A stretch of DNA of 53,638 nt from an uncultured Flavobacteriales bacterium (lineage in GTDB: Bacteria > Bacteroidota > Bacteroidia > AKYH767-A > 2013-40CM-41-45): contig CAYHCU010000001.1 in the NCBI GenBank assembly GCA_964355035.1, forward strand, positions 1 through 53,638, given 5' to 3'. The position numbers were made by a program, and so were the translations under genes. The notes below the pieces were generated by a model. It did not search any database. It was not told the DNA's origin and worked only from the letters and a program-made list of their open reading frames with translations. The stretch's first letter is position 1; every line of letters starts with the position of its first letter. This document shows positions 9,752 through 51,280 of this stretch, piece after piece.

Positions 9752-9759
9752 AAAAACAT

Positions 9760-18643: not shown

Positions 18644-18837
18644 TAATTGAAAGTTGATAATGGACAGTTGATAATGGACAATTGATAATGGACAATTGAT
18701 AATGGACAGTTGATAATGGACAATTGATAATGGACAATTTATAATGGACAATGGATGAATGCTTACATCGCGTCAATTGTCAATTGTCAATTGTCAATTG
18801 TCCACTGTCCACTGTCCACTGTCCATTATCAATTATC
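18644..18837. repeat. Long imperfect hairpin built from heptamer-based repeats (TGATAATGGACAAT units versus AATTGTCAATTGTCC/ACTGTCC units)
   Basis: The left arm holds about seven ttgataatggaca(a/g)t units up to about 18755. The loop is tgaatgcttacatcgcg. The right arm is caattgtcaattgtcaattgtcaattgtccactgtccactgtccactgtccattatcaattatc. It fills the whole gap between two convergent genes. Confidence 0.9.
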
Positions 18838-18838
18838 T

Positions 18839-19600
18839 TCAACGGTTGACCAACACTTTTTTAATAGAAACGAAATCTTTTCCTGCAATTCGAACGAAGT
18901 ACATTCCTTGTGCAAAACTTTCAGAACTAATTACTAAATTTTTATTTTCAAACACTTCTGTTTCTGAAACAACTTCTTTTCCGGTAAAATCTCTAATGCA
19001 AATATTTACATTTTCCTTTGATGAAATATTTATAACGTCTGTTGCCGGATTTGGAAATACCTGAATCAGATCATTCGAATTCTCAATATCCGAAACTGAA
19101 TTTATAACACAATTGATTACTCGTGATGAACATAGATCACCATTCAGATAAGTAATAATTTCCGAAATATCCGGAGTACATAGTTGACCGGACAATACGG
19201 TAAACCGAACCTTCACTAATGGAGTATTATTTGGAATCGCCTGCAAACTGTTTGACGTGAAACGAAGTGTTGAATCGCCGGTATTGAAATAGGACATGAC
19301 TTGTAAATTAAAAGTCAAATTCAAAACAGTGTCAAATACAAATTTTGACTGATCATATTTCAAGGAAAAATCAACAGCGTTAATTGTATCGTCAGAACTA
19401 AAAAACAATGGAAACTCTACAGTGCTTCCAAAAACTACTGCCTGAGACAAATCAAATACAATGCTATCTGATGCATTAATTGTTTCTGTTTTATCTGTCA
19501 AAATTGGACTAGTTTCTTTATCCCCTTGAATTCCTTTTGAAGTGCCCGGAATAAAACTTCCCGCAATTGACAAAATTAGAATTGTAATTATTTTTTTCAT
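18839..19600 (-). CDS. T9SS cargo: single cohesin-like domain + C-terminal sorting domain
   Basis: 253 aa. Signal peptide; IVFDLSQAVVFGSTVEFPLFFSSDDTINAVDFSLKYDQSKFVFDTV...STLRFTSNSL; C-terminal IQVFPNPATDVINISS...GMYFVRI. Homologous to the C-terminal third of the upstream 1135-aa protein. Confidence 0.7.
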   Translation of the reverse strand: MKKIITILILSIAGSFIPGTSKGIQGDKETSPILTDKTETINASDSIVFDLSQAVVFGSTVEFPLFFSSDDTINAVDFSLKYDQSKFVFDTVLNLTFNLQVMSYFNTGDSTLRFTSNSLQAIPNNTPLVKVRFTVLSGQLCTPDISEIITYLNGDLCSSRVINCVINSVSDIENSNDLIQVFPNPATDVINISSKENVNICIRDFTGKEVVSETEVFENKNLVISSESFAQGMYFVRIAGKDFVSIKKVLVNR

Positions 19601-19702: not shown

Positions 19703-19732
19703 AATAAAAAAGCCCCGGTTTTGGCCGGGGCT
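19703..19732 (-). terminator. Rho-independent terminator of the 1135-aa gene
   Basis: On the minus strand: agccccggccaaaaccggggct followed by tttttat. Plus-strand stem is 19711-19718 with 19725-19732. Confidence 0.8.
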
Positions 19733-19752: not shown

Positions 19753-22700
19753 TTATCTGTTTAAAACAATTTTCTTTAAAGAAACAAAATTGTCATTATA
19801 AATCTTCATCATGTAAATACCATTTGATACTGACTGAAGGCTTACTTCTTGTTTTTGACCTGCATTTAAATTTGCTTGTACATAAACAATGCTTCCATTG
19901 ATATCCATTAATTGAACAATAGCGTCTTCACTTGTAAGTACGTTAATTATTCCACTTGTTGGATTTGGATAAACACTTACCTGTTGTTCGTCGGTACTGA
20001 TAGAAGAATTACGACTAGTCAATAATTCAGCATTCACTTTTTCTCCATTAAGGAAGCACTCTAATGAGCTGAAATCAGCTTCATCAAGAACACCATTAAG
20101 AGCAGAAACACGAATTGAAACCAACGATTTATTTACTTCATAGTTATTTAGGCTATAAGATGTAAATCGAAGTGTTTTGTCTTCTGTGTTTAAGTTCGAA
20201 AGTGATTGCATGTAACCTGTGTGATCAACTACTGAATTGAATTCCATATTGTCATTTCCAAATTGCATTGAAAAGTCAAGTGAATTAACAACCTCATCAG
20301 AAATTACAGACACCGGAATATTGATGTAACCATCTACAACTGTAGATTTAGTAAGATCAAAAATTACGCGATCGGATGAATTTTCTCTAAGCAATCCACC
20401 TGAACCAACAGTTGAAAAGTTACCATTTATATCACCTAACAATACTCCTTTATACGATTCCTGACTAATGATCGGGCAGTTTGCTGTTGTTGTAACAGGA
20501 ACTTCTAAACAGAAAGGAATTTGCGGAACATGAGCTTTTGAGAATCCAACTCCATCATTCGACGGGTATGTTGAAGATATCCGATAACCTACATTTGTAG
20601 CTACTGTTGTTGCATCAATAAATAACCAGTCTTTTGAAGGCTGACCATTAGATACACCGGCTGAATTATAATTCCATGCTTGACGGAATTCAGGTGTTAA
20701 CAAAATAGCTCTTTGATTAATCTGTGAAAGATCACCGGCACTTACTACACCGTCAAGATTTACATCCATTCCGATAATTTGAAATACAGAAGGAGTAAAA
20801 GTTGCATCGTTAATAAGAACACGGCGGGTAAGGAAAGCATCGAATCCGTTTATCACAGACTGAACACTGCTTGACCCAAGGATATCTCTGGAGATACTAA
20901 CAGAAGAACCATTGTGAACATTGTAATCGAATGATCCACCAAGATCCGGCTGAACTGCAACAGAAGAAAGACTTGAACAACTTGAATTGTTTCCATAGAT
21001 GTTTGAAATCAAATACGAACTTGGATTTAAAGCATCATAACGAAGTGGGCTATTGTCTAACCAGAATTTCAAACTTCCTTTGAAAGATGAATCAGCAAAA
21101 GAAATTTGTTTTCCCGGATCAGCAAGTTGTGATAACACTCCACTGAAATAACTTTCTTGAATAAACGGTAGACTAAAGTTTGCTGTATCAGCTGCGCCAA
21201 AACCAGATGTTTTGCTATATTCCACACAGAACACATTTCCTGTTCCTGTAAATTTGGTATTTGCCGGAGCTGAACCATTGAAATATAAAGAAAGGCTGAT
21301 TGAACCATTTGCAGTATCAATGCTATTGGCAACATCAACATATGAAGGATTAATCAAATCACCATATATGGTAACCATGCCTGTTGGTGATACTTTAGTT
21401 TTATCATAAAGCATAACAACATCATATCCGATAACATTCGATACAGGATTCACCGCCTGAACAGGAACACAAAGAATCGAAGACGAGCAACTGCTGATAG
21501 CAGTTGCTATTTTGTAAGGTAGAATAGTGCTTACGATATTCAATGAAACCGGAGAAGAAGTTGTTTGAGCTCCTAAGTTATCAGTTGCACGTGCAGTAAC
21601 AGAATGTAAACCTAAAACACCTGTATAACTTGCAGCATAAGGAGATGTGTTGTCTAATCCAACTGAAACTCCGTCAACAAAAAACTCAACCGATGCAACC
21701 GAACCATTGTCACTTGCATTTGCAGCAATCGCTACTACAGTACCAACAATAAAACTAGAACCGTTTGAAGGTGAAGTAATCGTTACAACAGGAGCCGGAT
21801 TGTTTGCTACTGAAATTGCTATTGCAGCCGAAGTTGTTTGAGCAGCCTGATCATCTGTTGCGCGTGCTGTTAAATTATGATTTCCTGCAACGCTGGTATA
21901 ATTTGCTGTATAAGGCGAAGTCAAATCAATTCCGATTGAAACACCATCCACAAAAAATTCCACTGAAGCAACTGAAACGTTATCAGCAGCAACAGCTGTA
22001 ACAGGAACAACTGTACCGGTAATGAAACTTGCACCATTTGAAGGAGAAGTAATTGCAACAGTTGGTGGCGGATTATTAGCAACCGTAATGGCAACAACTG
22101 CAGAAGTTGTTTGAGCACCAACGTTATCAGTTGCTCTTGCTGTTAAGTTATGACTTCCTACTATACTTGTATAGTTTGCAGTATAAGGCGATGTATTGTC
22201 AACACCTACTGAAACACCATCTACAAAAAATTCAACTGAAGAAACAGTTCCATCTGCATCAGCAGCAGTGGCAGCAATTGCTACAACTGAACCTGTAATG
22301 AAACCTGAACCACTTGCGGGTGACGTAATACTAATTGTTGGTGCAATGTTTAATGCACCAAGCGTTCCCGACAAACTTGGAATAGATAACTCACCTGCAA
22401 TTGGATTTAAAGCAACATAATTCTGAGTGCCACCACCCGGTGTTCCAATCTGAATGTTTAATTCATAATGAAATACACCATTTGTTGTCATTTGAGCAAT
22501 CAAAATACGATTTGAAGCAAGTGGTCCTGTTGAACCGGCTAATGATGCCCAAGATCCATTGCTTGTTGTCAATAAATTTCCCAAGGTTCCTGAGTTACTT
22601 AAAAAATCTAAGTCAGCTGTTGAGATACCAACAAAGGTTACCGCTTCCGGTGCTCCTGCATAAAGTCCATCTTGAGTTGTTAAAGGAATACCTGCTGAAG

Positions 22701-23160
22701 CATCTGTATTTGCAAGAATACCACTTAAATTTATTACTGTTGCTCCACCTCCCGCTACTGCATCTTCACTTTTCAAAACTCCGAAATTACCTGCACAACC
22801 TGCGCCGACAGATAACCATGAATCAAGCATTACTGTATTCAAACGTGCGTTCAATTTTGAATATGCCGGTGTAACATCTCCTCTATCTGTATTTGTATAG
22901 AATGATGTTGTTGTCGACAATGTCAAGGCATGATCAGTAACGCCATAAGCTGCCTGAAATTTATACCCCGGTAACATATCTGCATAAATACGATAAGTAA
23001 CTGAACCGATTGGAAGATTGCTTCCCATTCCGATCGCACCAATTGAATCTGCCGCATTAGATACATAATACTTTTCGACAACGATATTCTCTAACCCATT
23101 TTGTGCATGGGCGAAAAATCCTGTCATAAGAAGGCCAAAGCCTAATAATATTTTTTTCAT
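19753..23160 (-). CDS. Large T9SS cargo: unnamed N-terminal paralogous domain + 3 Ig-like repeats + 2 cohesin-like domains + dockerin-like loop + CTD
   Basis: 1135 aa. Signal peptide; residues ~21-262 shared with ORFs 30403-31485, 31644-32450 and 25854-27203; residues 274-543 are three ~90-aa repeats (ITSP.NG.SFI.G..V...A.A.D...VASVEFFVDGVS.G.D.TSPY.A.YT...G.H..TARATD); VIGYDVVMLYDKTKV and SLDFSMQFGNDNMEF cohesin-like cores; MDVNLDGVVSAGD; C-terminal VSVYPNPTSGIINVL...GIYMMKI. Confidence 0.8.
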   Translation of the reverse strand: MKKILLGFGLLMTGFFAHAQNGLENIVVEKYYVSNAADSIGAIGMGSNLPIGSVTYRIYADMLPGYKFQAAYGVTDHALTLSTTTSFYTNTDRGDVTPAYSKLNARLNTVMLDSWLSVGAGCAGNFGVLKSEDAVAGGGATVINLSGILANTDASAGIPLTTQDGLYAGAPEAVTFVGISTADLDFLSNSGTLGNLLTTSNGSWASLAGSTGPLASNRILIAQMTTNGVFHYELNIQIGTPGGGTQNYVALNPIAGELSIPSLSGTLGALNIAPTISITSPASGSGFITGSVVAIAATAADADGTVSSVEFFVDGVSVGVDNTSPYTANYTSIVGSHNLTARATDNVGAQTTSAVVAITVANNPPPTVAITSPSNGASFITGTVVPVTAVAADNVSVASVEFFVDGVSIGIDLTSPYTANYTSVAGNHNLTARATDDQAAQTTSAAIAISVANNPAPVVTITSPSNGSSFIVGTVVAIAANASDNGSVASVEFFVDGVSVGLDNTSPYAASYTGVLGLHSVTARATDNLGAQTTSSPVSLNIVSTILPYKIATAISSCSSSILCVPVQAVNPVSNVIGYDVVMLYDKTKVSPTGMVTIYGDLINPSYVDVANSIDTANGSISLSLYFNGSAPANTKFTGTGNVFCVEYSKTSGFGAADTANFSLPFIQESYFSGVLSQLADPGKQISFADSSFKGSLKFWLDNSPLRYDALNPSSYLISNIYGNNSSCSSLSSVAVQPDLGGSFDYNVHNGSSVSISRDILGSSSVQSVINGFDAFLTRRVLINDATFTPSVFQIIGMDVNLDGVVSAGDLSQINQRAILLTPEFRQAWNYNSAGVSNGQPSKDWLFIDATTVATNVGYRISSTYPSNDGVGFSKAHVPQIPFCLEVPVTTTANCPIISQESYKGVLLGDINGNFSTVGSGGLLRENSSDRVIFDLTKSTVVDGYINIPVSVISDEVVNSLDFSMQFGNDNMEFNSVVDHTGYMQSLSNLNTEDKTLRFTSYSLNNYEVNKSLVSIRVSALNGVLDEADFSSLECFLNGEKVNAELLTSRNSSISTDEQQVSVYPNPTSGIINVLTSEDAIVQLMDINGSIVYVQANLNAGQKQEVSLQSVSNGIYMMKIYNDNFVSLKKIVLNR
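21532..22341. repeat. Intragenic triplication (three ~270-nt units encoding the Ig-like repeats)
   Basis: Protein residues 274-543 form three near-identical units. The repetition also generates the string of low-complexity antisense ORFs in the track (21647-22874). Confidence 0.85.
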
Positions 23161-23194
23161 ACTAAGTGTTTTTAGATTGATTTAGATTGATAAA

Positions 23195-24880
23195 TTAATT
23201 ACAAGTTTGATTGAATTTACCAAGTAGAATCAAAAAGTCAACATTATTAGTTGTACCATCAGCATTGATATCTGTAGGACATGGTTGAAGACCTGTTGTT
23301 ACATTCAATACTTGTGTATAAGACCAATCTGATAACCAGTTTTTACCTGAACTTGCAAATGCACCTCTGTATGGAGCAATTGAATAGAAACCATCTGCAG
23401 GTGCTGTAGGACAACCTGCTGTTGACAAAGCCGGATTTGGAATTCCGTCGTACTGTGCAGTTACAATGTTTGTGCTGCTATTCATTGTCCATGTAGAACT
23501 AAATCCCGGAATTGTAGCTGCATGAGTATTTAAATCTGTAGTATAGAATTGAGCTGTATCAGTAGTAAGTAATGTACCTGCTGCATTTTTATCAATTGCA
23601 ATATCTTTGTCCATACCTACGAATGTATTACATTTCACTTTCAAACTATTTGAACCATTACCACCTGTATTCGCCCAGTTATGATATGCTTCACTTCCAC
23701 CTGTTCTTGTACCAAATGCTTTGATAAGGTTTAAACCATATCTGAAGTTTGCGAATACAGAATTGTAAATTTCACCTTCAGTAAGTTCTTTTGCTTCGAT
23801 TGCTGCAATACCACTGTTATCACTTGTTAATATTTTTTTACCATTACCAATCATTGTTACATTGTAAATGAAAGGATGAGAACGCACAAGAAGGTTTGAT
23901 TTTTGATCATCAGCATCCATTTCGAATCCATTATCAGCATCAGGACTAGTACTGATTGTATCGTTAGTAGAAGATTTAATACCGAAAGCAAATTGTATTC
24001 TTCCACTGTAACCATCATCCCAATCTAACATGTCATCATTTCCAAATAATGTAGCATAGTATTTAACATCTACCGTTCCACCAAAGAATTCAATAGCATC
24101 ATCTGCACAAGAAACAACTTCAATGTGCTCAATTGATGTACCTCTTCCAACTGATCCAAGTGTCAAGCCGTTGATTTCACCACCAACTTGTAAGTTTGCT
24201 CCTGAATGACGAATAGATACATATTTCAGAATTCCTGAATTATCGTTATCATCAAAAGTCTCACCTGCAGTTAAGTTAGCTCCAAATTGATCTTTTGAGT
24301 TTGAACTTGCAAATCCCTCGAAAGTTCCAAGACCATTTGCAACACAAAGTTTACCATCACCAACACCCGGTTGGAATGGACCGTTTGCTGCTAAAGTTAA
24401 ATTGTTTGATGCTTTTCCGGCTAACAATAAACCACCCCATTTTCCTTTGTTTGAAACAGGATATGTTCCGTCTAAATTATCAGCTTCTGCTGTAAATACA
24501 ATTTGACAAGTAGAAGAACCACTTGCGAAAATTTTACCTCCACGTTCTACTGTCAAAGCTACTGCCGAATCTGCAGTTGATCTTAAACGACCTTTGATTA
24601 CAGTTCCCGGATTAATCGTTAGTGTTTTTCCACTTGGAACGTAAATCTTTTTGTCTAATATCCATGTATGTGCGCAATCAAAAATTGTGTTAAGTGCTGT
24701 AAGTTCACCATCTGCTGCTCCTCCTGAAGTTGCAAGTGTTGAAACTAAAACCGTTGGTCTGGACGACACAGGTGTCGGACAACCGCAATCGGTTCCTAAA
24801 TTCGTTTGGGCAAATCCCGTTAGAACAGAAGCGAAGACTACTGATGCAGTCGCAACCATTTTAGTAAATGTGTTTTTCAT
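23195..24880 (-). CDS. Secreted protein of unknown family (possible parallel beta-helix) with one C-terminal dockerin-like Ca loop
   Basis: The track start at 24919 is GTG. ATG at 24880 gives MKNTFTKMVATASVVFASVLTGFAQ (signal peptide). Contains EINGLTLGSVGRGTSIEHIEVVSCADDAIEFFGGTVDVKYY...DDMLDWDDGYSGRIQF and a C-terminal CPTDINADGTTNNVDFLILLGKF. Confidence 0.55.
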   Translation of the reverse strand: MKNTFTKMVATASVVFASVLTGFAQTNLGTDCGCPTPVSSRPTVLVSTLATSGGAADGELTALNTIFDCAHTWILDKKIYVPSGKTLTINPGTVIKGRLRSTADSAVALTVERGGKIFASGSSTCQIVFTAEADNLDGTYPVSNKGKWGGLLLAGKASNNLTLAANGPFQPGVGDGKLCVANGLGTFEGFASSNSKDQFGANLTAGETFDDNDNSGILKYVSIRHSGANLQVGGEINGLTLGSVGRGTSIEHIEVVSCADDAIEFFGGTVDVKYYATLFGNDDMLDWDDGYSGRIQFAFGIKSSTNDTISTSPDADNGFEMDADDQKSNLLVRSHPFIYNVTMIGNGKKILTSDNSGIAAIEAKELTEGEIYNSVFANFRYGLNLIKAFGTRTGGSEAYHNWANTGGNGSNSLKVKCNTFVGMDKDIAIDKNAAGTLLTTDTAQFYTTDLNTHAATIPGFSSTWTMNSSTNIVTAQYDGIPNPALSTAGCPTAPADGFYSIAPYRGAFASSGKNWLSDWSYTQVLNVTTGLQPCPTDINADGTTNNVDFLILLGKFNQTCN

Positions 24881-25026
24881 TTGTTGGTTTGTTTTAGAGT
24901 TTGTAATTATTGAATGCACAAATATCTATCTTCGGTATTAGTACATCAAAAACTAAAACTTAACAAATGATTACTATAATGTTTACTGCATGTATAGCAA
25001 ATGTCAACTACATGTTAATGGGAATT

Positions 25027-25061
25027 AATGAAAAATGAATAATGGAGAATGGAAAATCTGA
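25027..25061. repeat. Degenerate heptamer array (AATGRAN x5)
   Basis: aatgaaa aatgaat aatggag aatggaa aatctga in register, inside the 215-nt gap between the FISUMP gene and the next gene. Confidence 0.7.
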
Positions 25062-25095
25062 ACACATTATTTGTTTTTTTGTAAAATATTTTCTT

Positions 25096-25842
25096 TTAGT
25101 CTTTTACGCATCGGATGCTGAGGCCGTATGATTTAAGAACGTGGGAGCGAAAAACTTCAGACCTTTTATAATCCAAATAACGATACCAAGCTTCATTTCC
25201 GGAATATTCGGTTGAGGACCACCAAAATCCCATATATACTTTTCCGGTTGGTGAACTTATTGAGCCATCAAATAATCTGCATCCTCCGGCAAGTGCAGTA
25301 AAACCACTTTCATTTGTCGCCCACACTTCCCCATAAGCTTTCCAATTATCCGGTCCGGTGATTTTTAGTTTATCTCCTTCATTTGTTCCTCTCCAACTTG
25401 TTTTATCGGCCGATTCAATGCTCATACCTAAATAAATTTCCAGCTCTTTCCATTCCTGATCTGTAGGAATATGCCATCCTTCAGGTGCTAAATTATTGCT
25501 GTTATGTACAGCATACATATTATACAGAAGACCTGAATTATTGGCATTGTTATCATATTGTGAACAAGCTCCTGTTGTATCACTAGACCATGACAAATTA
25601 TCTGTTGTCGGAATAAAGTTAAGCGAATTTCCATTTCTGTATTTTGTAGTCTTCAAGTCTTCTGCCATCCACCATTGATTTCCAATTTTAATGGTCTTGT
25701 AAACATTGTTCTCAATATCTACTACAGTAGATGTTTCCGCCAAAATAATTTCTTTCTCTTTTTTACAACTGCTACTACAAATCGTAACTAAAGATAAAAC
25801 AAGAATAATAAATGAAGGTATGCTATAAATTCCTTTTTTCAT
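25096..25842 (-). CDS. FISUMP (Fibrobacter succinogenes major paralogous) domain lipoprotein
   Basis: 248 aa. Lipobox-like ICSSSC. DIENNVYKTIKIGNQWWMAEDLKTTKYRNG...GLLYNMYAV...APEGWHIPTDQEWKELEIYLG...NESGFTALAGG.R...GFWWSSTE...YGLSIRCVKD matches the TIGR02145-type pattern. Confidence 0.85.
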   Translation of the reverse strand: MKKGIYSIPSFIILVLSLVTICSSSCKKEKEIILAETSTVVDIENNVYKTIKIGNQWWMAEDLKTTKYRNGNSLNFIPTTDNLSWSSDTTGACSQYDNNANNSGLLYNMYAVHNSNNLAPEGWHIPTDQEWKELEIYLGMSIESADKTSWRGTNEGDKLKITGPDNWKAYGEVWATNESGFTALAGGCRLFDGSISSPTGKVYMGFWWSSTEYSGNEAWYRYLDYKRSEVFRSHVLKSYGLSIRCVKD

Positions 25843-25853
25843 GTGACGACTAT

Positions 25854-27203
25854 TTACTTTTTAATAATTTCAGAGGTCTGCAATGTTGCTCCGTCATTCA
25901 AAATAAAGAAATAAATACCCGAAACTAAATCACCCAAATTAATTTGACCTACATAATATCCGCTCACAACCCCAAGACTGTTTTCTAAAACCAACTCCCC
26001 AATCGAATTATAAACTGAATATTTATACTCTTTCTCCTTCTCTGCCGTAAATTGAAATATGAGTTCATTATTTACCGGATTTGGGTGAAGGTTCACAAAT
26101 TGACTTGAACTTCTACCAATACTTAGTTCCGGACAAACCATACTAATGTCTCGGTCACTACAATTGCCGGGATAGCAGCATAATCCGGGCAAATTAAAAT
26201 TTGAATTCGGATCATAATTACAAGCAAGTGTATCAGTACAACCAAAAACAATTTTCGTTTTACAGGAATCTACATTATTGCAAGTAAACGAAGCATTGTA
26301 TTCAAGAAAGCTTGCATCTACACATCCACAACTTGCAGGATATTTTAAAAATGGACTTAGTTTTACTGTATCACTATTTGTTTCTCCATCTGCAAAGACA
26401 GAAACATATTTCACAATTACAGGATTAGGGAAAGCAGGGACTTCAACTTCGATATTAAATTCAAAAGAAATATCTCCCTTAGTAGTTATCTGTGCTATAA
26501 GAACCTGGTTGCTATCAGGATTAACACCGGACACACCGGAATTCTGCAAAGCAGCATCATAACTTACAAACTCAGTACCCTGTTTTTTTGAACCAAATAT
26601 AGTTGAATCAACTCCTGAAACATCATTTACAAATCCATAATCTGCCCACGATGTTGGGATCGTAGTCATCGTATCCATACCATCTGACATTGTTAATGGA
26701 ATACCGGCATCAGGATTATTATTTGTAAGAAGACCTCCCGAGATTCCTTCACTTCCACCATCGCTGTTTATTCCACCAATGAAGGAACCACTAACATCTG
26801 CTCTCTTCAATACACCAAAATAAGTTTTCGTTGCAATTCTTGTCGTTTGTCCTAATGTCAACCATGAATCAAGAGCAACAGTATTTTCTCTTAATCGTGT
26901 TTTGGAAAAATCTTTTGCAAAACTAAGTCCATCAGCAGTATTATTAAAAATAAAATCACTGCTGGATATTTTCAGTGGATGGTTTTGATCGCCATATATT
27001 TTCCTGAGTTTAGTTCCGGGAGCCAAATCTACATAAACACGATAAGTTATTGACCCAATCTCTAATCTGCCTCCGGTAGTATCCGTAGCATCAAGACTAT
27101 CTGAAATATAATATGTCTCCACAATTACATTTTCCACTTGAGAAAATGCAAATTGAAAACTAAATAAACTTATCATTAACGTTATAAAATATTTTTTGCT
27201 CAT
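25854..27203 (-). CDS. T9SS cargo: divergent copy of the unnamed paralogous domain + Cys-rich linker + CTD
   Basis: 449 aa. VENVIVETYYISD...GSITYRVYVDLAPG...NTVALDSWLT...AGIPLTMSDG...VLIAQITTKGDISFEFNIEV. Then GCTDTLACNYDP...CCYPGNC. C-terminal VNLHPNPVNNELIFQF...GIYFFIL. Confidence 0.75.
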   Translation of the reverse strand: MSKKYFITLMISLFSFQFAFSQVENVIVETYYISDSLDATDTTGGRLEIGSITYRVYVDLAPGTKLRKIYGDQNHPLKISSSDFIFNNTADGLSFAKDFSKTRLRENTVALDSWLTLGQTTRIATKTYFGVLKRADVSGSFIGGINSDGGSEGISGGLLTNNNPDAGIPLTMSDGMDTMTTIPTSWADYGFVNDVSGVDSTIFGSKKQGTEFVSYDAALQNSGVSGVNPDSNQVLIAQITTKGDISFEFNIEVEVPAFPNPVIVKYVSVFADGETNSDTVKLSPFLKYPASCGCVDASFLEYNASFTCNNVDSCKTKIVFGCTDTLACNYDPNSNFNLPGLCCYPGNCSDRDISMVCPELSIGRSSSQFVNLHPNPVNNELIFQFTAEKEKEYKYSVYNSIGELVLENSLGVVSGYYVGQINLGDLVSGIYFFILNDGATLQTSEIIKK

Positions 27204-27236
27204 TGTATGATTTTTTTATATGCTTACTAATTCTAA

Positions 27237-30200
27237 TCAGATCTTATATGTTAGTCCAACAATAAAATTTGTTCCGTAACGATAATTATCATAATTAAGG
27301 TCCCATCCACTCTCATAATTATAAGAGCGACGAATGGGAGAATTAAAAATATCTCTAACTGTTAAGCTCATACTAAAATGCTTGCCAATTGATTTTGATA
27401 TTTTCAAATCAAACAAATGTCTTGGTAGCTCATAGATATCCGGCACTTCTTTCACATCTGCTGCCACTACCAGGCGTGGACCTTGCACATTATAGCTTAA
27501 TGTTACAGCCAATCCTATACTATCTGAAGTATATGTAACCATACTATTCACAACAAAAGGTGCTTGCCCAAACATTGATCGACTAACAGTGTCTTGTGGA
27601 ATATAGTTTTTCACGCCACCGGATATATCCAACCTGGTTCTGATAAATTCCGTTTGAGAATAAATAAGTGAAAGATTAGCTCTGAAATCAAAATGTTTCC
27701 CAATTTTTTTTCTGCCCTCCAACTCAACTCCTGCTACTTTTGACTTATCTACATTCTGCCAACTATAGCCAACTGATTTTACTAATTCAATATGATTCTT
27801 GAATTTCTTGTAAAAGAAACTTATGGAAACATTGTTACCTGATTTTAAATAAGACTCCAAACGCAAATCGTAATTGTCAACATGAACCATTTTTAAATCC
27901 GAATTTCCAAAGACGAAAGCTCTGTATTCATAGTCAAATACCGCTACGTCTGAAAGCTCTCTGATACTTGGTCTGGCAATTGTCTGACTAAAATTAAATC
28001 TTGCATTCACCGTATTGATTTCTGAATTCTTAAGTTTATAAATAAAACTTACAGACGGTAAAAAACTAATTTCATTTAATTCACCTGCATTGGCAAGAGG
28101 CAATCCATCGCGATAATTTCTTCTTGGATCATTCTCCTGATAGTTTAAAGAATCAAACTTCACGACATCAGTTAAAATATCCGCTTTCTCTATTCTTAGG
28201 CCACCTGAAATACGCATTTTGTCAGTAATTGAATAATCAGACATGGCATATCCTGCTAAAATACTGCTATTCCCAAAGGTGTGATTCGCATCTGACAATA
28301 ATTCATTATAAAAAATATCGATAGTGTGATGCTCAACAGCATAGATATCTGTAAATGAATAAATGTTAAAATTATTAAAATCAAAAAGTTTCTCCAAATT
28401 ATCATTTTGCAATGTTAAACTTGAATAATTCCCAAAGTCAATAGAGTAATCGTATTGATCATTTTTTCGATCATTTCGTTGATATGCACTGCCGAATTTT
28501 AACTTCCTGACCAAGTCAGCCTTGTGAAAAACAGGAATTTCAAATGAAATTTGCGAATCAAATAAATTATCTGATAAATATCGATAGTATCGATGTATGC
28601 CATCTCTGATTTCAGGCCCTATTTGATACTGATCGGTAAACGGATCTTTTAAATACTGAACGTTTTTAAAATCTGGTGCGCTGCTCTTTCCGTTCGTATA
28701 AGATGCACTAAATTCTATTTTAGATTTAGACCTAGGTAAATAATGTTCAGACCTGACTTGATAGATTAATTGTTTACGTTGCTCATAGAATTGACTCTTA
28801 GAGATTACAAAATTTGATGAGTCACGATTGTCAATGGAACTTAACACATTATTTACCCCCGTGAAATTTGGCATGAACAGTAAAGAGAAACTATTATTCG
28901 TATTCAATTTATAAGATGCATTTATTAAAGCACTCCATCCATTTGTTTCTTTACTTACTTCCTGACTCATATAAGAAGAAACTACGTTAACTAGATTTCC
29001 AAAACCATCCGATGCAACACCGGCGCGATTAGAAACTGAATTAGCATCATATTGAGTAGAGCTTCCATAACGATAACCAACCATAAAGCCTAACTCGCGT
29101 TTAAATAACTTTGTTTGGTTTCCAAAAGTGAAACTCTGACTGAAATTAAGTGGCGCCTTTCTCAAAGTCGTATTCCAATTGTTTGGAAAAGATTGGCCTG
29201 ACTTTGGAACATCTGCATTCAGCACATCAAAAGCCTGATTTCTATAGGGTCCGTTATTGTAAAGTAATTTTGCGCTGTTAAAAGCATCCGGATCATTGAT
29301 CTGTGCTGGTGCTAAAAGTCCAAGTTGAACTAAACCTAATTTAAAATATGTTTCACCGGTAATTGTGCCTTCTCCCCAATTCTCTTGTGTAACTCCTAAA
29401 GAATTATAATACGAACCCAAACCTAAAGCAACAAATTCCTGATACTGGCTCGGGTTAGCTACCGAAGTTGCAAAACCGGTATGACTATGTTCTCTAAATG
29501 TATTATCAAATCCAACCCAATCTGTTGAACTTCTCTGTGAACTCAAGATATCCTTAAATGTTGATTGGCTATTATATCCAATCGAAGTTTCCACAATTAC
29601 ATTGAGCTGCTCCGGAAAATCTTTTGTTTGAACTGAAAGATATGCACCTGACCAGTCGCCGGATAAATCCGGGCTCGCAGTTTTGGTGATAATAATGTTG
29701 TCTACTAAACTTGCAGGAAACAAATCCAACTTAATATTATTTGTGAAAGGATCTAATGTTGGTATTCGCAATCCGTTAATTGCCGTTTTTACATATCTGT
29801 CTCCAATTCCACGTACTGTAATGAAACTTCCATTCGTTGATACTCCACTTACTCTGGAAATTGCAGCAGAGACGCTTGCATCACCTGTTTTTTTTATTGT
29901 TTCTGAAGAAATAAAGTCAAGTGTAGTTGCTGAATTTCTTTTCATGCTTTCAACATAATACTCTCTCGCTTTCACTGCTTTTGATGTAATGACAACTTCA
30001 TTGATCTCTTTTGAAGATGACTTAAGTACAAAATTTCTAATTACTACTTGACCTTTAACAGGATTTACTGTTTCTTCTACTTTCAAATAACTTATCGAAG
30101 AAATTATTAGCTCTTGAGAAGTACTGTCAACAATTTTTAATGAGTAATTTCCATCGAAATCTGTTATTGCACCAACCGTTGGCTTGGACTTTAAAATAAC

Positions 30201-30320
30201 AGCTGCGCCAATCACTGTTTCACCATTTTCATCAGTAATCTTACCCCTAATGGTGCCTTGGCTAAAAATTAAATTAGCAAAAATTAAATTTACCAGAATG
30301 ACAAGAAGTGCCTTTTTCAT
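27237..30320 (-). CDS. TonB-dependent receptor with N-terminal carboxypeptidase-regulatory-like domain (no SusD partner)
   Basis: 1027 aa. Signal peptide; GTIRGKITDENGETVIGAAVILK...ITDFDGNYSLKI (CarboxypepD_reg-like); plug region TLDFISSETIKKTGDASVSAAISRVSGVS...ITVRGIGDRY; long beta-barrel ending ...GLTYKI. Confidence 0.9.
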   Translation of the reverse strand: MKKALLVILVNLIFANLIFSQGTIRGKITDENGETVIGAAVILKSKPTVGAITDFDGNYSLKIVDSTSQELIISSISYLKVEETVNPVKGQVVIRNFVLKSSSKEINEVVITSKAVKAREYYVESMKRNSATTLDFISSETIKKTGDASVSAAISRVSGVSTNGSFITVRGIGDRYVKTAINGLRIPTLDPFTNNIKLDLFPASLVDNIIITKTASPDLSGDWSGAYLSVQTKDFPEQLNVIVETSIGYNSQSTFKDILSSQRSSTDWVGFDNTFREHSHTGFATSVANPSQYQEFVALGLGSYYNSLGVTQENWGEGTITGETYFKLGLVQLGLLAPAQINDPDAFNSAKLLYNNGPYRNQAFDVLNADVPKSGQSFPNNWNTTLRKAPLNFSQSFTFGNQTKLFKRELGFMVGYRYGSSTQYDANSVSNRAGVASDGFGNLVNVVSSYMSQEVSKETNGWSALINASYKLNTNNSFSLLFMPNFTGVNNVLSSIDNRDSSNFVISKSQFYEQRKQLIYQVRSEHYLPRSKSKIEFSASYTNGKSSAPDFKNVQYLKDPFTDQYQIGPEIRDGIHRYYRYLSDNLFDSQISFEIPVFHKADLVRKLKFGSAYQRNDRKNDQYDYSIDFGNYSSLTLQNDNLEKLFDFNNFNIYSFTDIYAVEHHTIDIFYNELLSDANHTFGNSSILAGYAMSDYSITDKMRISGGLRIEKADILTDVVKFDSLNYQENDPRRNYRDGLPLANAGELNEISFLPSVSFIYKLKNSEINTVNARFNFSQTIARPSIRELSDVAVFDYEYRAFVFGNSDLKMVHVDNYDLRLESYLKSGNNVSISFFYKKFKNHIELVKSVGYSWQNVDKSKVAGVELEGRKKIGKHFDFRANLSLIYSQTEFIRTRLDISGGVKNYIPQDTVSRSMFGQAPFVVNSMVTYTSDSIGLAVTLSYNVQGPRLVVAADVKEVPDIYELPRHLFDLKISKSIGKHFSMSLTVRDIFNSPIRRSYNYESGWDLNYDNYRYGTNFIVGLTYKI

Positions 30321-30341
30321 GTTGACTATGATGATCTAAAT

Positions 30342-30389
30342 CTACAAAGCCAGCAGGTTTTTGATTAGAATTACCTGCTGATCTTGTAG
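30342..30389 (-). other. Intercistronic stem-loop between paralog B and the TonB-dependent receptor gene
   Basis: ctacaa-agc-cagcaggt ... acctgctg-atc-ttgtag: 6 + 8 bp with a 3-nt internal mismatch. No U-run follows, so it is not a clear terminator. Confidence 0.4.
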
Positions 30390-30402
30390 CCCTTTCACTA
30401 AT

Positions 30403-31485
30403 TTAGTTTTTAATTATTTTTTTATAACTTTCAATTCCATTTACGGATACTTTAACAAAATACTGTCCGACAGGCAATTTAGAAATATCGACTTTCTCCA
30501 CTTGAATACCGGAAATTTTTCCAATGTTTTTAGAAATGACTTCTGTACCAAGAATATTATAAATTGAATAAAATGCATCACCCTTATTTTCTACTGATTT
30601 AATTTCAAGACTGAAGCTATTCATTGTAGGATTAGGGAAAACATTAATTTCCGGATAAGTTATTGGTTTAGTAGTACTAATGCTGTTAAGCACAGAATAT
30701 GTCAGAAACGCTTCTTGAATTTCAGCACCTACAGGATTACTTGCAACATAATTCTCGACACCTCCATTAGGAGTTCCAACTTGAATATTTAATTCAAAAG
30801 AAAAATCTCCGTTCGTTGTTATTTGTGCGATTAACACTTTATTATCAATTGTATCCGGACCGATTGAACCATTTAATGATGCCCATGAACCATTGATTGT
30901 TGAAAATACAGGGCCATTTGTTCCATCATTTTGAGCATCGAACATTGCCATCTCAGTAGAAATACCTACGGCAGTTAATGCTTCAGGAGTACCGGCTAAA
31001 AGTCCATCCTGAATTGTCAAAGGAATGCCGGCAGTTGCATCATTATTTTGCAATACTCCATCCGCATTTACAACATTATTGTCTCCATCATCTAATGACT
31101 TAAGGATACCAAAATTACCGGTACAGGCTGCGCCTACCGATAACCATGAATCAAGCATTACAGTATTTTGTGAAGCCTGATTTTTATTGTATGTCGGTGA
31201 AGTTGCTCCGCGATCTTCGTTATTAAAAAACAAGGTAGTTGTTGCGATTCGAAGTTCGTGATCAGGAACACCATAAGCAGCCTGAAATTTATATCCTTGG
31301 AGTAAGTCTGCGTAAATTCTATAGGTTACAGAGCCAATTGGCAAAACTCCGCCTGTTAAATTTTGAGTAGCATCATTTGCATCTGAAACGTAATATTTTT
31401 CTACAATTACGTTTTCTAATCCATTTTGAGAATGGGCAGAATATGCAGATAAAAGAAAAAAGAAAGCTGGTATAATTTTTTTCAT
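30403..31485 (-). CDS. T9SS cargo: unnamed paralogous domain + CTD
   Basis: 360 aa. GLENVIVEKYYVSDANDA...GSVTYRIYADLLQGYKFQAAYGV...NTVMLDSWLSVGA...AGIPLTIQDGL...NGSWASL...VLIAQITTNGDFSFELNIQVGTPNGGVENYVASNP. C-terminal INVFPNPTMNSFSLEI...GQYFVKV. Confidence 0.8.
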   Translation of the reverse strand: MKKIIPAFFFLLSAYSAHSQNGLENVIVEKYYVSDANDATQNLTGGVLPIGSVTYRIYADLLQGYKFQAAYGVPDHELRIATTTLFFNNEDRGATSPTYNKNQASQNTVMLDSWLSVGAACTGNFGILKSLDDGDNNVVNADGVLQNNDATAGIPLTIQDGLLAGTPEALTAVGISTEMAMFDAQNDGTNGPVFSTINGSWASLNGSIGPDTIDNKVLIAQITTNGDFSFELNIQVGTPNGGVENYVASNPVGAEIQEAFLTYSVLNSISTTKPITYPEINVFPNPTMNSFSLEIKSVENKGDAFYSIYNILGTEVISKNIGKISGIQVEKVDISKLPVGQYFVKVSVNGIESYKKIIKN

Positions 31486-31643
31486 GTTTTGATTTTTTTT
31501 TAATTTAAACTTTAATACGGTTCTAATTATTTCACAAAAGTCAGAATTGTAATCTGCACTTAATTGATTTTCGTGTTATGATTATGTTAGGTCTGGATTA
31601 TTACTATTTTAATAAATTAATAAATTAATAACTTTCTCCTTTT

Positions 31644-32450
31644 CTAATTCAATTCACGACTATTATAAATTAATTTCTTAAATTGAATTTCAGCTCCGAT
31701 TGGATTTTTTGCCACATAATTCTCGACTCCACCAAAAGGAGTTCCTAATTGAATATTCAATTCAAAACTAAATTCACCATCAGTGGTAACCTGAGCTATT
31801 AAAACTTTATTTGTTGAATCGAGACCAACGGAACCTCCAAAAGATGCCCACGATCCATTCTCAGTAAAGAAAGTTTGTCCTTTACTGTCAGGTGCATTTA
31901 TCCCAAATGCTGCTAATTGTGTACTATCTAATCCAAAAACAGAAACAACTGAAATTGGAGAGGCGCGATATAAGCCATCTTTTGAACTAATCGAAATACC
32001 ACACAACGGATCTGAATTTTGTAATAACCCATCTACATTGACAATAGCACTAGTTGTATCTTTTGATTTTAAAACAGCAATATTAGCTTCCGAACCTGCG
32101 CAAACTGATACCCACGAATCAAGCATGACCGTGCTTTTCGTCAATCGAATATTGGGTATATCATTTGCTGTAAATCCGCCGAATTCTTCATTGTTAAAAA
32201 AATAAGTAGACGTTGAAAGCTTTAAAGGGTGGCCGGTTACACCATATGCTGCTTGAAATCGATACCTGGGAAGCATGTCCACAAAAATCCGATACGTTAC
32301 CGAACCGGCATGCAAGGCCTCGTTGCTCCCTATCTCATCAGCTTTATCAGAAATGTAGTATTTTTCAATAAAAATGCCTTCCAGACCTTGCTGTGCTTTT
32401 GCTAAAGCACCTTGCATTAATATTAATACCCCGACTAAATAGATTTTCAT
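31644..32450 (-). CDS. Secreted protein consisting only of the unnamed paralogous domain (no CTD)
   Basis: The track start at 32489 is TTG. ATG at 32450 gives MKIYLVGVLILMQGALAKAQ (signal peptide). GLEGIFIEKYYISDKADE...GSVTYRIFVDMLPRYRFQAAYGV...STVMLDSWVSV...NGSWASF...VLIAQVTTDGEFSFELNIQLGTPFGGVENYVAKNP. Confidence 0.75.
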   Translation of the reverse strand: MKIYLVGVLILMQGALAKAQQGLEGIFIEKYYISDKADEIGSNEALHAGSVTYRIFVDMLPRYRFQAAYGVTGHPLKLSTSTYFFNNEEFGGFTANDIPNIRLTKSTVMLDSWVSVCAGSEANIAVLKSKDTTSAIVNVDGLLQNSDPLCGISISSKDGLYRASPISVVSVFGLDSTQLAAFGINAPDSKGQTFFTENGSWASFGGSVGLDSTNKVLIAQVTTDGEFSFELNIQLGTPFGGVENYVAKNPIGAEIQFKKLIYNSRELN

Positions 32451-32536: not shown

Positions 32537-32680
32537 AATGGACAATGGACAATGGACAATGGACACCTGTCAGCGGTCAGCTATCCATTGTCCACTATCC
32601 ACTATCCACTATCCACTATCCATTGTCAATTGTCCACTATCCATTGTCCTTTATCAGTTGTTAATTGTCAGTTGTTAATT
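32537..32680. repeat. Heptamer-repeat hairpin, copy L (AATGGAC arm, tgtcagcggtcagc core, TATCCAC/TTGTCC arm)
   Basis: aatggacaatggacaatggacaatggacacc-tgtcagcggtcagc-tatccattgtccactatccactatccactatccactatccattgtcaattgtccactatccattgtcc... Overlaps the last codons of the four-helix-bundle gene. Confidence 0.9.
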
Positions 32681-33027
32681 TTTTTCGCTGTTTTTATACT
32701 TGCAGTCAGTATCCGAATTAACTCAACAACCTTACTCTTGAGAGCTTCATAAACCTCAACATTAATATAGCCGGTTCTCACTAACAGTTCTATCCAGTAT
32801 TCGGATTCACACGCTTCTTTTAATGAAATAGATAGCTTGTTTATGAAATCCGCTTTGCTTTGAGCCTGTTCTGCTTCACAAACATTTGCTCCGATTGAAG
32901 TGCCTGACCTTATGAGCTGCTTCGAAAGAATATATTCTCTTCTTATTTCTTGTAAATTTCTTCCCTGCTTAACTATTTCTAAAGCAAAGTCAAAACTTTT
33001 TGTTTTTAAAATATTCTTCTTTTCCAT
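32668..33027 (-). CDS. Four-helix-bundle protein (23S rRNA intervening-sequence protein family)
   Basis: ATG at 33027 gives MEKKNILKTKSFDFALEIVKQGRNLQEIRREYILSKQLIRSGTSIGANVCEAEQAQSKADFINKLSISLKEACESEYWIELL. This is the characteristic Q(L/I)(I/L)RS.TSIGANI.EA....S..DF..K..I..KE..E..YWL pattern of the family. Confidence 0.85.
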   Translation of the reverse strand: MEKKNILKTKSFDFALEIVKQGRNLQEIRREYILSKQLIRSGTSIGANVCEAEQAQSKADFINKLSISLKEACESEYWIELLVRTGYINVEVYEALKSKVVELIRILTASIKTAKKINN

Positions 33028-33184
33028 TGATCCTCTATTTAAAGAGTCGCAATCTAACAAATGTTTCCTCTGAAAAATTTCAAAAAACAATTTTCACTAA
33101 CGTAACATCCATCAAAGAATAGAATTTTATCAAACAAATTATGAGTGCTTACCCAACCACTTTCAATTTGCCGGTAGCTACAAT

Positions 33185-33334
33185 ATTGTCCATTATGCAC
33201 TGTCAATTGATAATGGATAGTGGATAATGGATAATGGATAATGGACAATTGATAATGGACATGTGTCAGCAGTCAGCTATCCATTGTCAATTATCAATTG
33301 TCCATTATCCATTGTCCTTTGTCAATTGTCAATT
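33185..33334. repeat. Heptamer-repeat hairpin, copy R (same orientation and same core as copy L)
   Basis: ...cactgtcaattgataatggatagtggataatggataatggataatggacaattgataatggaca-tgtgtcagcagtcagc-tatccattgtcaattatcaattgtccattatccattgtcctttgtcaattgtcaatt. Overlaps the stop codon of the 33329-35233 gene. Confidence 0.9.
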
Positions 33335-35233: not shown

Positions 35234-35404
35234 GATCTTTTTTTTTGTAAAAGTAGATAATTGTAAATAGGAAAATAATCTCTTTGAAATAAATTGCAAC
35301 TTAAAAATGTTAATATCTGTCGAAAAAATAAATCAAGTCAAAAAAATCACATGACATCAGTCATGCTAAAAACAAAAGGCCCTATTTGCCTTAAGAAAAC
35401 ATCA

Positions 35405-36313: not shown

Positions 36314-36330
36314 TTTCAAAAATACAATCA

Positions 36331-38814: not shown

Positions 38815-39309
38815 CTAAATTGGAAGGTGTTTAGGAGATAATATCTGTAACAAAACTACATTTTCATGAGATAGCATTGACCATTTATCGACTGAAATCT
38901 GAAGTTGTACCACGGCGCAAGTCGGCATTTCAATTGTTTTTACTGTTAAAAAACTACTCAAATCACTTACAATTGGGTTATGACCATAGATTGCCACAGA
39001 TTGGATATCGTCATTTAATGATTTGAGAATTTTCAGATAGTCCAATTTAGAGGTGTCATAAAATAAAGGCTCAATGAGTAGTTTTTGTTTTGGGAACTCC
39101 AATTCTTCTGCAATAATCAACGCTGTACTGAGTGCACGAATCGCCGGACTGCTGATCATTGCTTGAGGAATATGACCTTTCGATTTCAACACTTTCCCTA
39201 TTTTATGTGCATCAGTATACCCGCGCTCATTTAATGGGCGATCAATATCTGCCATTCCCTCAATTGACCAGTCCGATTTGGCATGTCGGACAATATAAAT
39301 CATTTTCAT
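38815..39309 (-). CDS. sixA: Histidine phosphatase superfamily protein, SixA-like
   Basis: ATG at 39309 gives MKMIYIVRHAKSDW...DRPLNERG... (RHG-type catalytic motif) and IYGHNP near the C-terminus. Short SixA-like length. Confidence 0.7.
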   Translation of the reverse strand: MKMIYIVRHAKSDWSIEGMADIDRPLNERGYTDAHKIGKVLKSKGHIPQAMISSPAIRALSTALIIAEELEFPKQKLLIEPLFYDTSKLDYLKILKSLNDDIQSVAIYGHNPIVSDLSSFLTVKTIEMPTCAVVQLQISVDKWSMLSHENVVLLQILSPKHLPI

Positions 39310-39387
39310 AGTGCAAAGATAACCTAATACAATTGACATTTAGTGCTTAAAGAACTTGAAGCCGTTCATTAAACTCTAAAATCTTTT

Positions 39388-51279: not shown

Positions 51280-51280
51280 A

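Follow-up and report, generated by a model that had tools for sequence, protein, structure and literature searches.

TonB-dependent uptake in Bacteroidota is understood almost entirely through polysaccharide utilization loci (PULs) of the SusCD type and a few lipoprotein-assisted micronutrient systems. TonB-dependent receptors (TBDRs) that come without SusD classically import metals, heme and vitamins, often together with extracellular binders, as in the pairs HasA/HasR, HmuY/HmuR and BtuG/BtuB. We analysed a locus that shares features with both groups on a stretch of 53,638 nucleotides (below, the window; contig CAYHCU010000001.1 of assembly GCA_964355035.1) from an uncultured Flavobacteriales bacterium. 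The locus is a cassette of minus-strand genes for a SusD-less TBDR, a lipoprotein with a FISUMP domain, a secreted beta-helix protein, and four proteins of 268, 360, 449 and 1135 aa (Ndom268, Ndom360, Ndom449 and Ndom1135) that share an N-terminal domain of ~245 aa, here called Ndom. We rate it as a TonB-dependent uptake locus of the accessory-protein-assisted kind, with an undescribed protein family at its centre.

Like the 'utilisomes' of SusCD-type PULs, the cassette has a TBDR with a SusC-type N-terminal extension (NTE; CarboxypepD_reg), a TonB-box-like motif and a Plug domain; a predicted surface lipoprotein and other predicted surface proteins are encoded around this receptor in a single same-strand string, and the partner folds (beta-helix, immunoglobulin (Ig) stalks, lectin-like) are typical of glycan systems. 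It differs from them in that SusD is absent, the barrel is not of the SusC type, there is no recognisable carbohydrate-active enzyme (CAZyme), regulator or inner-membrane transporter, and the accessory proteins are cargo of the type IX secretion system (T9SS) with an unnamed domain rather than lipoproteins. With HasA-HasR, HmuY-HmuR, BtuG-BtuB and XusB-XusA the cassette shares the conserved pairing of an extracellular or surface protein with a SusD-less TBDR encoded beside it, whereas Ndom has no sequence or fold relation to HmuY, HasA, BtuG or XusB and matches no hemophore family (HmuY, HasA, HusA). The cassette is further set apart from such hemophore and binder systems by its three to five paralogs in fixed slots, their T9SS export and the retention of a tail-less copy, and it lacks metal or vitamin regulatory and transport genes.

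The 360-, 449- and 1135-aa proteins and a neighbour of 253 aa share the layout of type A T9SS cargo, in which a functional head and Ig-like spacers lead to a C-terminal sorting domain (CTD); they have an N-terminal Gln and a CTD that scores above cut-offs, but the head domain is undescribed, and one paralog and the beta-helix partner carry no CTD. As in cohesin-dockerin assemblies, both cellulosomal and non-cellulosomal, a cohesin-like module occurs on CTD-anchored proteins (with Pfam Cohesin just above its cut-off), dockerin-like segments with a Ca loop occur on the beta-helix and 1135-aa proteins, and the window encodes other dockerin-bearing proteins. Unlike in those assemblies, what the beta-helix protein has is one Cys-bracketed loop that scores below the cut-off, and not a duplicated 22-residue segment, and the organism is Gram-negative, with no evident outer-membrane route for a dockerin-bearing partner. 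The SusD-independent receptors of the TonB-Xanth-Caul family (TIGR01782) give the best barrel match of the cassette TBDR, which nevertheless scores far below the family cut-off, has a Bacteroidota-type NTE and a Beta_helix_4 protein as its partner. Searches of the literature turned up no account of the cassette or of the Ndom and Beta_helix_4 families, and public sources label the cassette proteins 'hypothetical'. The closest metagenome-assembled genomes (MAGs) belong to families 2013-40CM-41-45 and OLB10 of the uncultured order AKYH767-A (activated-sludge MAG catalogue), an order known from genomes only. An AKYH767 genome at 115x is reported from a Lake Zurich amoeba/Planktothrix enrichment (PMC9583780).

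Results

The cassette is conserved around one specific receptor

We scanned one genome per species, found 518 Ndom-encoding stretches and retrieved 70 loci for comparison (designated by L and a number below), all of them from Bacteroidota-type MAGs from lakes, soil and activated sludge. Gene content was counted in the informative subset of 28 loci of at least 18 kb, in which neighbours were found by tblastn with the window proteins. An ortholog of the cassette TBDR was present in 26 of the 28, as was FISUMP, and the beta-helix protein in 24. The commonest same-strand orders were N-N-T-N-F-B-N (13 loci) and N-T-N-F-B-N (9 loci; N, Ndom; T, TBDR; F, FISUMP; B, beta-helix), with three to five Ndom copies per locus in fixed slots, and an independent JGI contig showed the same arrangement around a tandem two-copy Ndom protein. 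The enrichment of TBDRs next to Ndom homologs, on which the original prediction had staked its proposal of a capture-and-delivery system, is clear, and it is the same ortholog that recurs. Ndom is thus linked to one specific orthologous SusD-less receptor rather than to TBDRs in general, a conclusion that we regard as strongly supported.

The receptor had been described as lacking a SusD-like neighbour, and indeed no SusD-like (RagB/SusD) protein was found in the cassette or among the window proteins, nor did one cluster in the 70 loci, around whose cassettes no regulator, inner-membrane transporter or CAZyme is conserved either. The 253-aa protein with a cohesin-like domain was found in 20 of the 70 loci by tblastn, and its open reading frame (ORF) cluster spans 14 loci; clustering of all ORFs in the 70 loci yielded no other widely conserved neighbour, and the flanks vary between clades. 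Median identity to the window proteins, computed over 21 complete loci, was 71% for the beta-helix protein, 70% for Ndom360, 60% for Ndom449 and Ndom1135, 57% for Ndom268, 55% for the TBDR and 52% for FISUMP, with Ndom360 as the most conserved Ndom copy and the beta-helix protein as the most conserved partner. The public records of L048 and L063 are named Bifidobacterium breve and Bifidobacterium sp., yet both hold a Bacteroidota-type cassette with T9SS tails; these MAGs are probably mislabelled or mis-binned.

Ndom has no match in family and structure libraries

Pairwise alignment and a hidden Markov model (HMM) of 130 homologs bore out the claim that the cassette encodes four paralogs of one secreted domain. 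The paralogs can be aligned over ~260 N-terminal residues with 38-61% identity and 63 invariant columns, and the HMM finds exactly four full-length copies in the window (E 6e-86 to 4e-117) and none elsewhere in it. A type I signal peptide directly precedes every copy, and the mature proteins begin with Gln or a Gln-like residue. All of the sequence blocks that the original prediction had listed as conserved are present, but the last two are degenerate in Ndom449, which is the most divergent of the four copies. Across paralog groups 20 columns are invariant, which is consistent with one shared ligand. The invariant polar residues are E, D, R, D, W, D, D, N, Q and N, while H, K and Y are nearly invariant; this His is the only conserved one, and the Ndom alignment contains no conserved Cys pair.

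Searches of Ndom against Pfam and NCBIfam gave no match even at E<=10, PHROGs gave none, and a sequence profile run against PDB sequences returned only a chance match (E 0.33). A newer precomputed Pfam release, which already holds PF28492, annotates Ndom homologs with the T9SS tail only. An AlphaFold model of the whole 360-aa protein was mediocre (predicted local distance difference test, pLDDT, 77), and its Foldseek matches were driven by the T9SS tail only. The model of Ndom alone (the domain of the 360-aa protein, with 130 sequences from two paralog groups as input) reached a pLDDT of 93.5 and a predicted template modelling score (pTM) of 0.92, and shows a beta-sandwich into which ~80 loop-rich residues are inserted; this insert is conserved and was modelled with confidence. 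Foldseek with this model found nothing at E<=0.001 in PDB (best E 0.037, query-normalised score TMq <=0.28) or in BFVD. The weak, non-significant fold neighbours were Ig-type adhesin domains of Gram-positive bacteria and the small copper-binding protein YcnI (target-normalised score TMt 0.41-0.45, not significant), and we rejected both resemblances as signs of homology. Our claim is limited to a predicted domain without a structural match in the PDB and BFVD libraries, rather than an established new fold. The original prediction could assign the domain to no named family, and the profile searches, structure prediction and Foldseek comparison that it had proposed as a check likewise returned no characterised family.

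Word-index matches for two of the paralogs numbered 1813 and 1500, and an exhaustive profile search gave 1270 clusters at 50% identity for the Ndom family, 570 of them at E<=1e-30. Some Ndom proteins have as many as four copies in tandem, and the longest measures 2182 aa. Among 39 long members, Ndom was accompanied by T9SS tails (33/39), Ig-like modules (Big_7, Ig_7, Big_2, PKD), Ca-binding repeats and a small number of further modules without catalytic function; none of the 39 fuses Ndom to a catalytic domain. Because these partners are only non-catalytic, Ndom appears to be the functional head of T9SS cargo and not a carbohydrate-binding module (CBM) appended to an enzyme, and we judged a role as a generic CBM unlikely. 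That Ndom directly follows the signal peptide or stands in tandem, and is fused only to spacers, Ca-binding repeats and CTDs, also points to a dedicated functional head.

C-terminal decoration and sorting signals are conserved slot by slot

T9SS type A tails (PF18962 / TIGR04183, cut-off 27 bits) were found in the 360-aa (44.6 bits), 449-aa (35.8), 1135-aa (50.5) and 253-aa (50.7) proteins, and the 268- and 561-aa proteins have none above the cut-off. The linker between Ndom and the tail of Ndom449 contains 10 Cys in ~70 residues, and Pfam detects three Big_7 Ig repeats in Ndom1135 (E 5e-51). Of the escalating decoration that had been described for the four paralogs, the series of bare domain, CTD only, Cys-rich linker plus CTD, and three Ig repeats plus CTD therefore stands, but only one of the two cohesin-like domains is supported. 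Two such domains had been proposed in Ndom1135: the C-terminal one is supported through paralogy with the 253-aa protein only (32% identity over 212 aa between that protein and residues 927-1135, E 1e-34), whereas the first (~540-720) has no detectable similarity to the C-terminal one or to PDB. The 253-aa protein itself matches Pfam Cohesin (PF00963; E 4e-5, 24.3 bits vs a cut-off of 24.1) as well as Por_Secre_tail. The proposed dockerin-like loop of Ndom1135 has a weak match to Pfam Dockerin (PF00404), which at 17.1-17.9 bits is below the cut-off of 22.9.

The same gradation recurs among the retrieved loci. The slot directly upstream of the TBDR (up1) holds proteins of ~361 aa with a CTD in 40 of 41 loci, and the first downstream slot (down1) proteins of ~446 aa with a CTD in 40 of 43. 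Proteins in the distal downstream slots (down2 and down3 pooled) include stalked forms, reach ~1131-1168 aa and have a CTD in 17 of 22 cases. The second upstream slot (up2) is occupied by proteins of 258-291 or 359-369 aa, none of which has a CTD (0/29); these consist of bare Ndom with a short basic tail or of Ndom with one Ig module, and have an ordinary SPI-type signal peptide and no lipobox. The graded decoration is a slot-by-slot conserved architecture and not a peculiarity of this genome. Since the tail-less copy combines a plain signal peptide with the absence of both T9SS tail and lipobox, it is probably periplasmic rather than surface-exposed.

In a variant cassette a further upstream slot (up3) holds a ~700-aa protein (L016, L027, L031, L043, L048, L051, L053, L054 and L060), in which Ndom is joined to a region weakly like a 776-aa SBBP/SprB protein and a 656-aa protein of the window (26-35% over 100-165 aa). 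The latter, encoded at 33329-35299 (-) upstream of the cassette, is T9SS cargo without an assigned family.

Receptor, FISUMP lipoprotein and beta-helix protein

In the TBDR, Pfam recognises the Plug domain (42.9 bits vs a cut-off of 23.9) and CarboxypepD_reg, with the TonB-box-like NEVVITS between the NTE and the Plug. Barrel residues 575-1026 align to TIGR01782 with E 2.7e-46, although the 158.3 bits compare with a family cut-off of 310, and the Pfam TBDR barrel model gave no match at E<=0.01. The match to the SusC/RagA family TIGR04056 (69.6 bits vs a cut-off of 368.25) is limited to residues 23-163, the NTE, which is also the only part of the receptor matched in PDB.

The FISUMP protein scores 149.6 bits against PF09603 (cut-off 33.9) and 106.1 against TIGR02145 (cut-off 41.65), and all orthologs have a lipobox Cys followed by a Lys/Asp/Glu-rich stretch, in agreement with its initial description as a FISUMP lipoprotein. 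Lauber et al. in 2016 reportedly described a surface-export signal of Bacteroidota lipoproteins, and the acidic stretch of FISUMP resembles such a signal. The FISUMP domain is grouped with C-type-lectin-like (CLec2-type) DUF1566/DUF823 domains, and one member of the group is a surface lipoprotein. Because of the conserved lipobox Cys, the export-like acidic stretch and this lectin-like grouping, FISUMP is a more conventional candidate for a SusD-like surface partner, at least as good as Ndom. In L056 (7277-9814) and L067 (17357-19933) the FISUMP gene is followed by genes for an OMP_b-brl_2 barrel (~228 aa) and a PMT_2/TMTC-like TPR membrane glycosyltransferase (~611-630 aa), an insertion that may hint at glycosylation of cassette proteins.

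The beta-helix protein, originally listed as a 560-aa secreted protein of unknown family, can now be placed: precomputed Pfam annotation assigns the exact 561-aa protein, and 120 of 120 listed homologs, to PF28492 (Beta_helix_4), and the protein ends in a dockerin-like loop. Its identity across species is 66-86%, with invariant acidic motifs (FDDNDNSG, DD..E..GGTV, GNDD..D.D.G, D.DN..E.D.DD..S and AKE.TEGE). The C-terminus has an invariant C-P-x-D-x-N-x-D-G ... D-F-L ... C pattern that weakly resembles a single dockerin segment (E 0.63 to a PDB dockerin); a Cys pair closes this one dockerin/EF-hand-like loop. No PDB sequence relative of the protein was found by single sequence or profile.

A second locus of this kind is present in L067 (2806-8771), where another TBDR of 965 aa, with the same NTE, Plug and TIGR01782-like type (196.7 bits), adjoins a tandem-duplicated Beta_helix_4 relative of 954 aa (35% identity). 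This locus is without Ndom, and the Beta_helix_4 relative is T9SS cargo because it ends in a T9SS CTD; a second pair of TBDR and beta-helix-type ORF is seen in the ORF cluster map of L069. These sequences suggest that TBDR and Beta_helix_4 form a wider unit independent of Ndom, with the beta-helix protein acting at the cell surface, and that the dockerin-like loop took the place of its T9SS tail in the Ndom cassette. The TBDR and beta-helix pair may even be the core, with Ndom as an add-on. Elsewhere in the window, a 1003-aa protein (43575-46586, +) combines two proprotein-convertase P-domains with a full C-terminal Dockerin_1 (E 6e-5) and has no T9SS tail, and a 625-aa PKD protein (10565-12442, -) has a weak dockerin match and a T9SS tail. 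This organism may use cohesin- and dockerin-like modules more generally to assemble its surface.

Layout and surroundings of the cassette in the window

The cassette features are collected in Table 1. The seven consecutive minus-strand ORFs at 19753-32450 that the original prediction had reported were found as described, with intergenic gaps of 11-215 bp, but the string was incomplete, since the conserved eighth neighbour, the gene of the 253-aa protein, had been left out. The hairpin after the 1135-aa gene is likely to mark the end of a transcription unit.

Table 1. Coordinates of the cassette features in the window.
Feature	Position	Strand	Description
Ndom268 gene	31644..32450	-	268 aa; signal peptide (cleavage AKA|QQ) and bare Ndom, without T9SS tail; slot up2
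Ndom360 gene	30403..31485	-	360 aa; signal peptide, Ndom, T9SS type A CTD (residues 282-358); slot up1, adjoins TBDR
Ndom of the 360-aa protein	30691-31428	-	residues ~20-265; profile match
TBDR gene	27237..30320	-	1027 aa; signal peptide, CarboxypepD_reg-type NTE (23-111), TonB-box-like NEVVITS, Plug (127-221), barrel
Ndom449 gene	25854..27203	-	449 aa; signal peptide, Ndom, Cys-rich linker, T9SS CTD; slot down1
FISUMP (Fib_succ_major) lipoprotein gene	25096..25842	-	248 aa; predicted surface-exposed
Beta_helix_4 (PF28492) gene	23195..24880	-	561 aa, secreted, without T9SS CTD; GTG start at 24919 would give 574 aa
Ndom1135 gene	19753..23160	-	1135 aa; signal peptide, Ndom, three Big_7 Ig repeats, unassigned region (~540-790)
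Ndom1135 protein, C-terminal part			weak dockerin-like loop (~795-816), cohesin-like domain (~927-1050), T9SS CTD (1063-1132)
Terminator-like hairpin	19711..19732	-	8 bp stem with 7 GC pairs, then T-run; 21 bp past the stop of the 1135-aa gene
Cohesin-like and T9SS CTD gene	18839..19600	-	253 aa; conserved downstream neighbour, absent from the original prediction

In two clades, the first cassette gene is preceded, at a fixed distance of 145-158 bp, by a palindrome, TGTTAACA (often AATGTTAACATT). The palindrome stands before the first Ndom gene in L022, L028, L033, L034, L038, L041-L043, L048, L051, L053, L054, L057 and L060, and is also found 144-145 bp or ~302 bp ahead of the beta-helix gene in L028, L037, L040-L042 and L044. 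The equivalent places in the window do not contain it. If this is an element of an operator or promoter, as it may be, the cassette would comprise two transcription units under common control.

The window itself has intergenic arrays of 7- or 14-nt tandem repeats at 495-559, 9702-9752, 18638-18834, 32537-32680, 33204-33334, 46633-46663 and 48686-48716, with units that include AATGGAC, AATTGAT and CTATCCA. Two arrays flank the gene of a 140-aa four-helix-bundle / 23S_rRNA_IVP protein (32668-33090); immediately upstream of the cassette, four inverted GTCCATT units come after GGACAAT/GGATAGT repeats, with which they could form a long hairpin, and arrays of ATTTCGG and AATCCGA form an inverted pair on either side of a DEAD-box helicase gene. 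Further upstream of the cassette, on the minus strand, lie genes for a Ppx/GppA phosphatase (35405-36331), polyphosphate kinase 1 (36331-38463) and a histidine phosphatase (38815-39339). Ppx adjoins the cassette only in L002 and L058; the polyphosphate genes are probably a coincidental neighbour, and we dropped a phosphate link through ppk1/ppx, which stand next to the cassette in only 2 of the 70 loci. A GH1 gene near some cassettes was likewise set aside as a bystander, its side and orientation changing between loci. At 49609-52849 (-) there are two back-to-back genes for class I aminoacyl-tRNA synthetases of the Glu/Gln type, one of 556 aa with GlnRS-type C-terminal domains and one of 522 aa of the GluRS type.

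Discussion

We interpret the cassette as a conserved envelope-spanning TonB-dependent acquisition machine of uncultured Bacteroidota (AKYH767-A and relatives), and give this reading a probability of about 45%. What the sequences establish is which genes and domains the cassette comprises and that gene order, slot architecture and sorting signals are conserved; where the proteins reside, whether Ndom binds a ligand, whether the beta-helix protein is an enzyme, whether cohesin and dockerin dock and to which class the substrate belongs are inferences. According to it, three T9SS-exported proteins would display the Ndom head at the cell surface on stalks of rising length (no spacer, a ~90-aa Cys-rich linker, and ~800 aa of Ig and cohesin-like modules), where the heads would capture an extracellular ligand. 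In this reading Ndom would be a binding module that feeds the TBDR, in a role like that of SusD or of hemophores. The captured ligand is more likely to be a polymer or glycan-derived molecule than a metal, because of the partner folds and the absence of riboswitches and of metal or vitamin genes. The beta-helix protein would process the ligand, probably as an enzyme, and the FISUMP lipoprotein, exposed at the surface, would associate with the receptor in the manner of surface lipoproteins of other TonB systems in Bacteroidota. Driven by TonB energy, the SusD-less receptor would then import the product, and the fourth, tail-less Ndom copy would receive or handle the same ligand in the periplasm. 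In favour of a docking of the beta-helix protein we counted that two CTD-anchored cohesin-like modules are encoded beside this protein with its dockerin-like loop. A bolder version holds that Ndom founds a third class of capture proteins that feed TBDRs, beside SusD lipoproteins and hemophores, with a new fold, T9SS export at graded heights, a periplasmic twin, and a beta-helix enzyme recruited by cohesin-dockerin contacts that replace its tail; as a whole this version is rather unlikely.

Several observations weigh against an acquisition machine of this kind. The cassette contains no CAZyme, inner-membrane transporter, regulator or riboswitch that would indicate the substrate: Pfam and NCBIfam gave no match in it to glycoside hydrolase, polysaccharide lyase or carbohydrate esterase families, nor to hybrid two-component, extracytoplasmic-function or other regulators, and no Rfam riboswitch (cobalamin, thiamine pyrophosphate or other) was found anywhere in the window. 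Ndom360 is more conserved than the TBDR (70% vs 55% median identity), and invariant polar residues are numerous in Ndom; these two features are commoner in enzymes, or in binders specific for a small ligand, than in glycan-binding proteins. A T9SS tail is missing from the beta-helix protein, which has no evident route to the surface cohesins, the dockerin and cohesin assignments lie at or below family cut-offs, and the periplasmic site of the tail-less Ndom copy is a default assumption only.

In the main rival, Ndom would be a new catalytic domain, e.g. a depolymerase of a polysaccharide, a protein or another polymer, and the cassette would be PUL-like and degradative: fragments cut outside the cell by tethered paralogs would enter through the TBDR, and their degradation would be completed in the periplasm by the tail-less paralog and the beta-helix protein. 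Such a layout would mirror classical PULs, which have enzymes of one family on both sides of the outer membrane, and a conserved tail-less copy fits a periplasmic enzyme. It would also account for high conservation and for invariant polar residues common to paralogs that are only ~40% identical, for an Ndom360 that has changed less than the receptor, and for the lack of fusions to any other catalytic domain, as expected of a catalytic head. However, no enzyme family resembles Ndom by sequence or fold, its weak fold neighbours are adhesin-type Ig domains and YcnI rather than hydrolases or lyases, no catalytic motif is recognisable, and three tether lengths are less obviously useful to an enzyme than to a capture module. 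We consider a catalytic Ndom unlikely, though less so than a hemophore-like or a purely adhesive role.

Micronutrient scavenging of the hemophore, siderophore, vitamin or metal type, in which Ndom binds a scarce ligand and hands it to the TBDR while the periplasmic copy serves as a binding protein, seems quite improbable to us. The combination of a SusD-less TBDR and a dedicated extracellular binder is the classical arrangement for metals, heme and vitamins, the strictness with which Ndom is conserved points to a small ligand that does not vary, and both this domain and the beta-helix protein have abundant invariant Asp, Asn and Glu that could bind cations; to this may be added the weak, non-significant likeness to copper-binding YcnI. 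Yet riboswitches are missing from the window, neither a Fur-type regulator nor an ABC transporter, PepSY protein or reductase occurs in or near the cassette in the 70 loci, and a site for heme or a transition metal is unlikely given a single nearly invariant His and no conserved Cys pair. Partners such as those of the cassette (beta-helix, lectin-like lipoprotein, Ig stalks, cohesin/dockerin-like modules) instead typify polymer-degrading systems, and the TBDR barrel is nearest to TIGR01782, whose characterised members import carbohydrates. Least probable is a module for surface architecture or for adhesion to particles, prey or flocs, assembled by T9SS and cohesin-dockerin-like contacts, with the TBDR as a structural or co-inherited neighbour. 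The nearest, non-significant fold neighbours are indeed Gram-positive adhesin domains, and T9SS adhesins have similar architectures with stalks and CTD anchors; T9SS cargo is abundant in the window and in the host lineage, for whose order gliding genes have been reported. Against this, strict collinearity with the same orthologous TBDR across species at ~50% identity argues for functional coupling, the TBDR retains its TonB-box-like motif and Plug, and the conserved, probably periplasmic tail-less copy would have no role.

Whatever its substrate, the cassette departs from known TonB-dependent uptake in joining a non-SusC barrel with a SusC-type NTE to T9SS-anchored paralogs of an unnamed domain, and it is also distinctive in its lectin-like surface lipoprotein and its very strongly conserved beta-helix protein. 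Its order is fixed across many species of an abundant uncultured lineage of freshwater, soil and activated sludge. Structural and biochemical work has concrete targets in Ndom (residues 20-265 of the 360-aa protein) and in the Beta_helix_4 protein. If the cassette is a nutrient-capture machine, it would represent a new accessory-protein solution, a new protein family of ~1270 clusters at 50% identity, and a direct link of the T9SS to TonB-dependent import, and it may explain part of the success of AKYH767-A in wastewater treatment plants and lakes.

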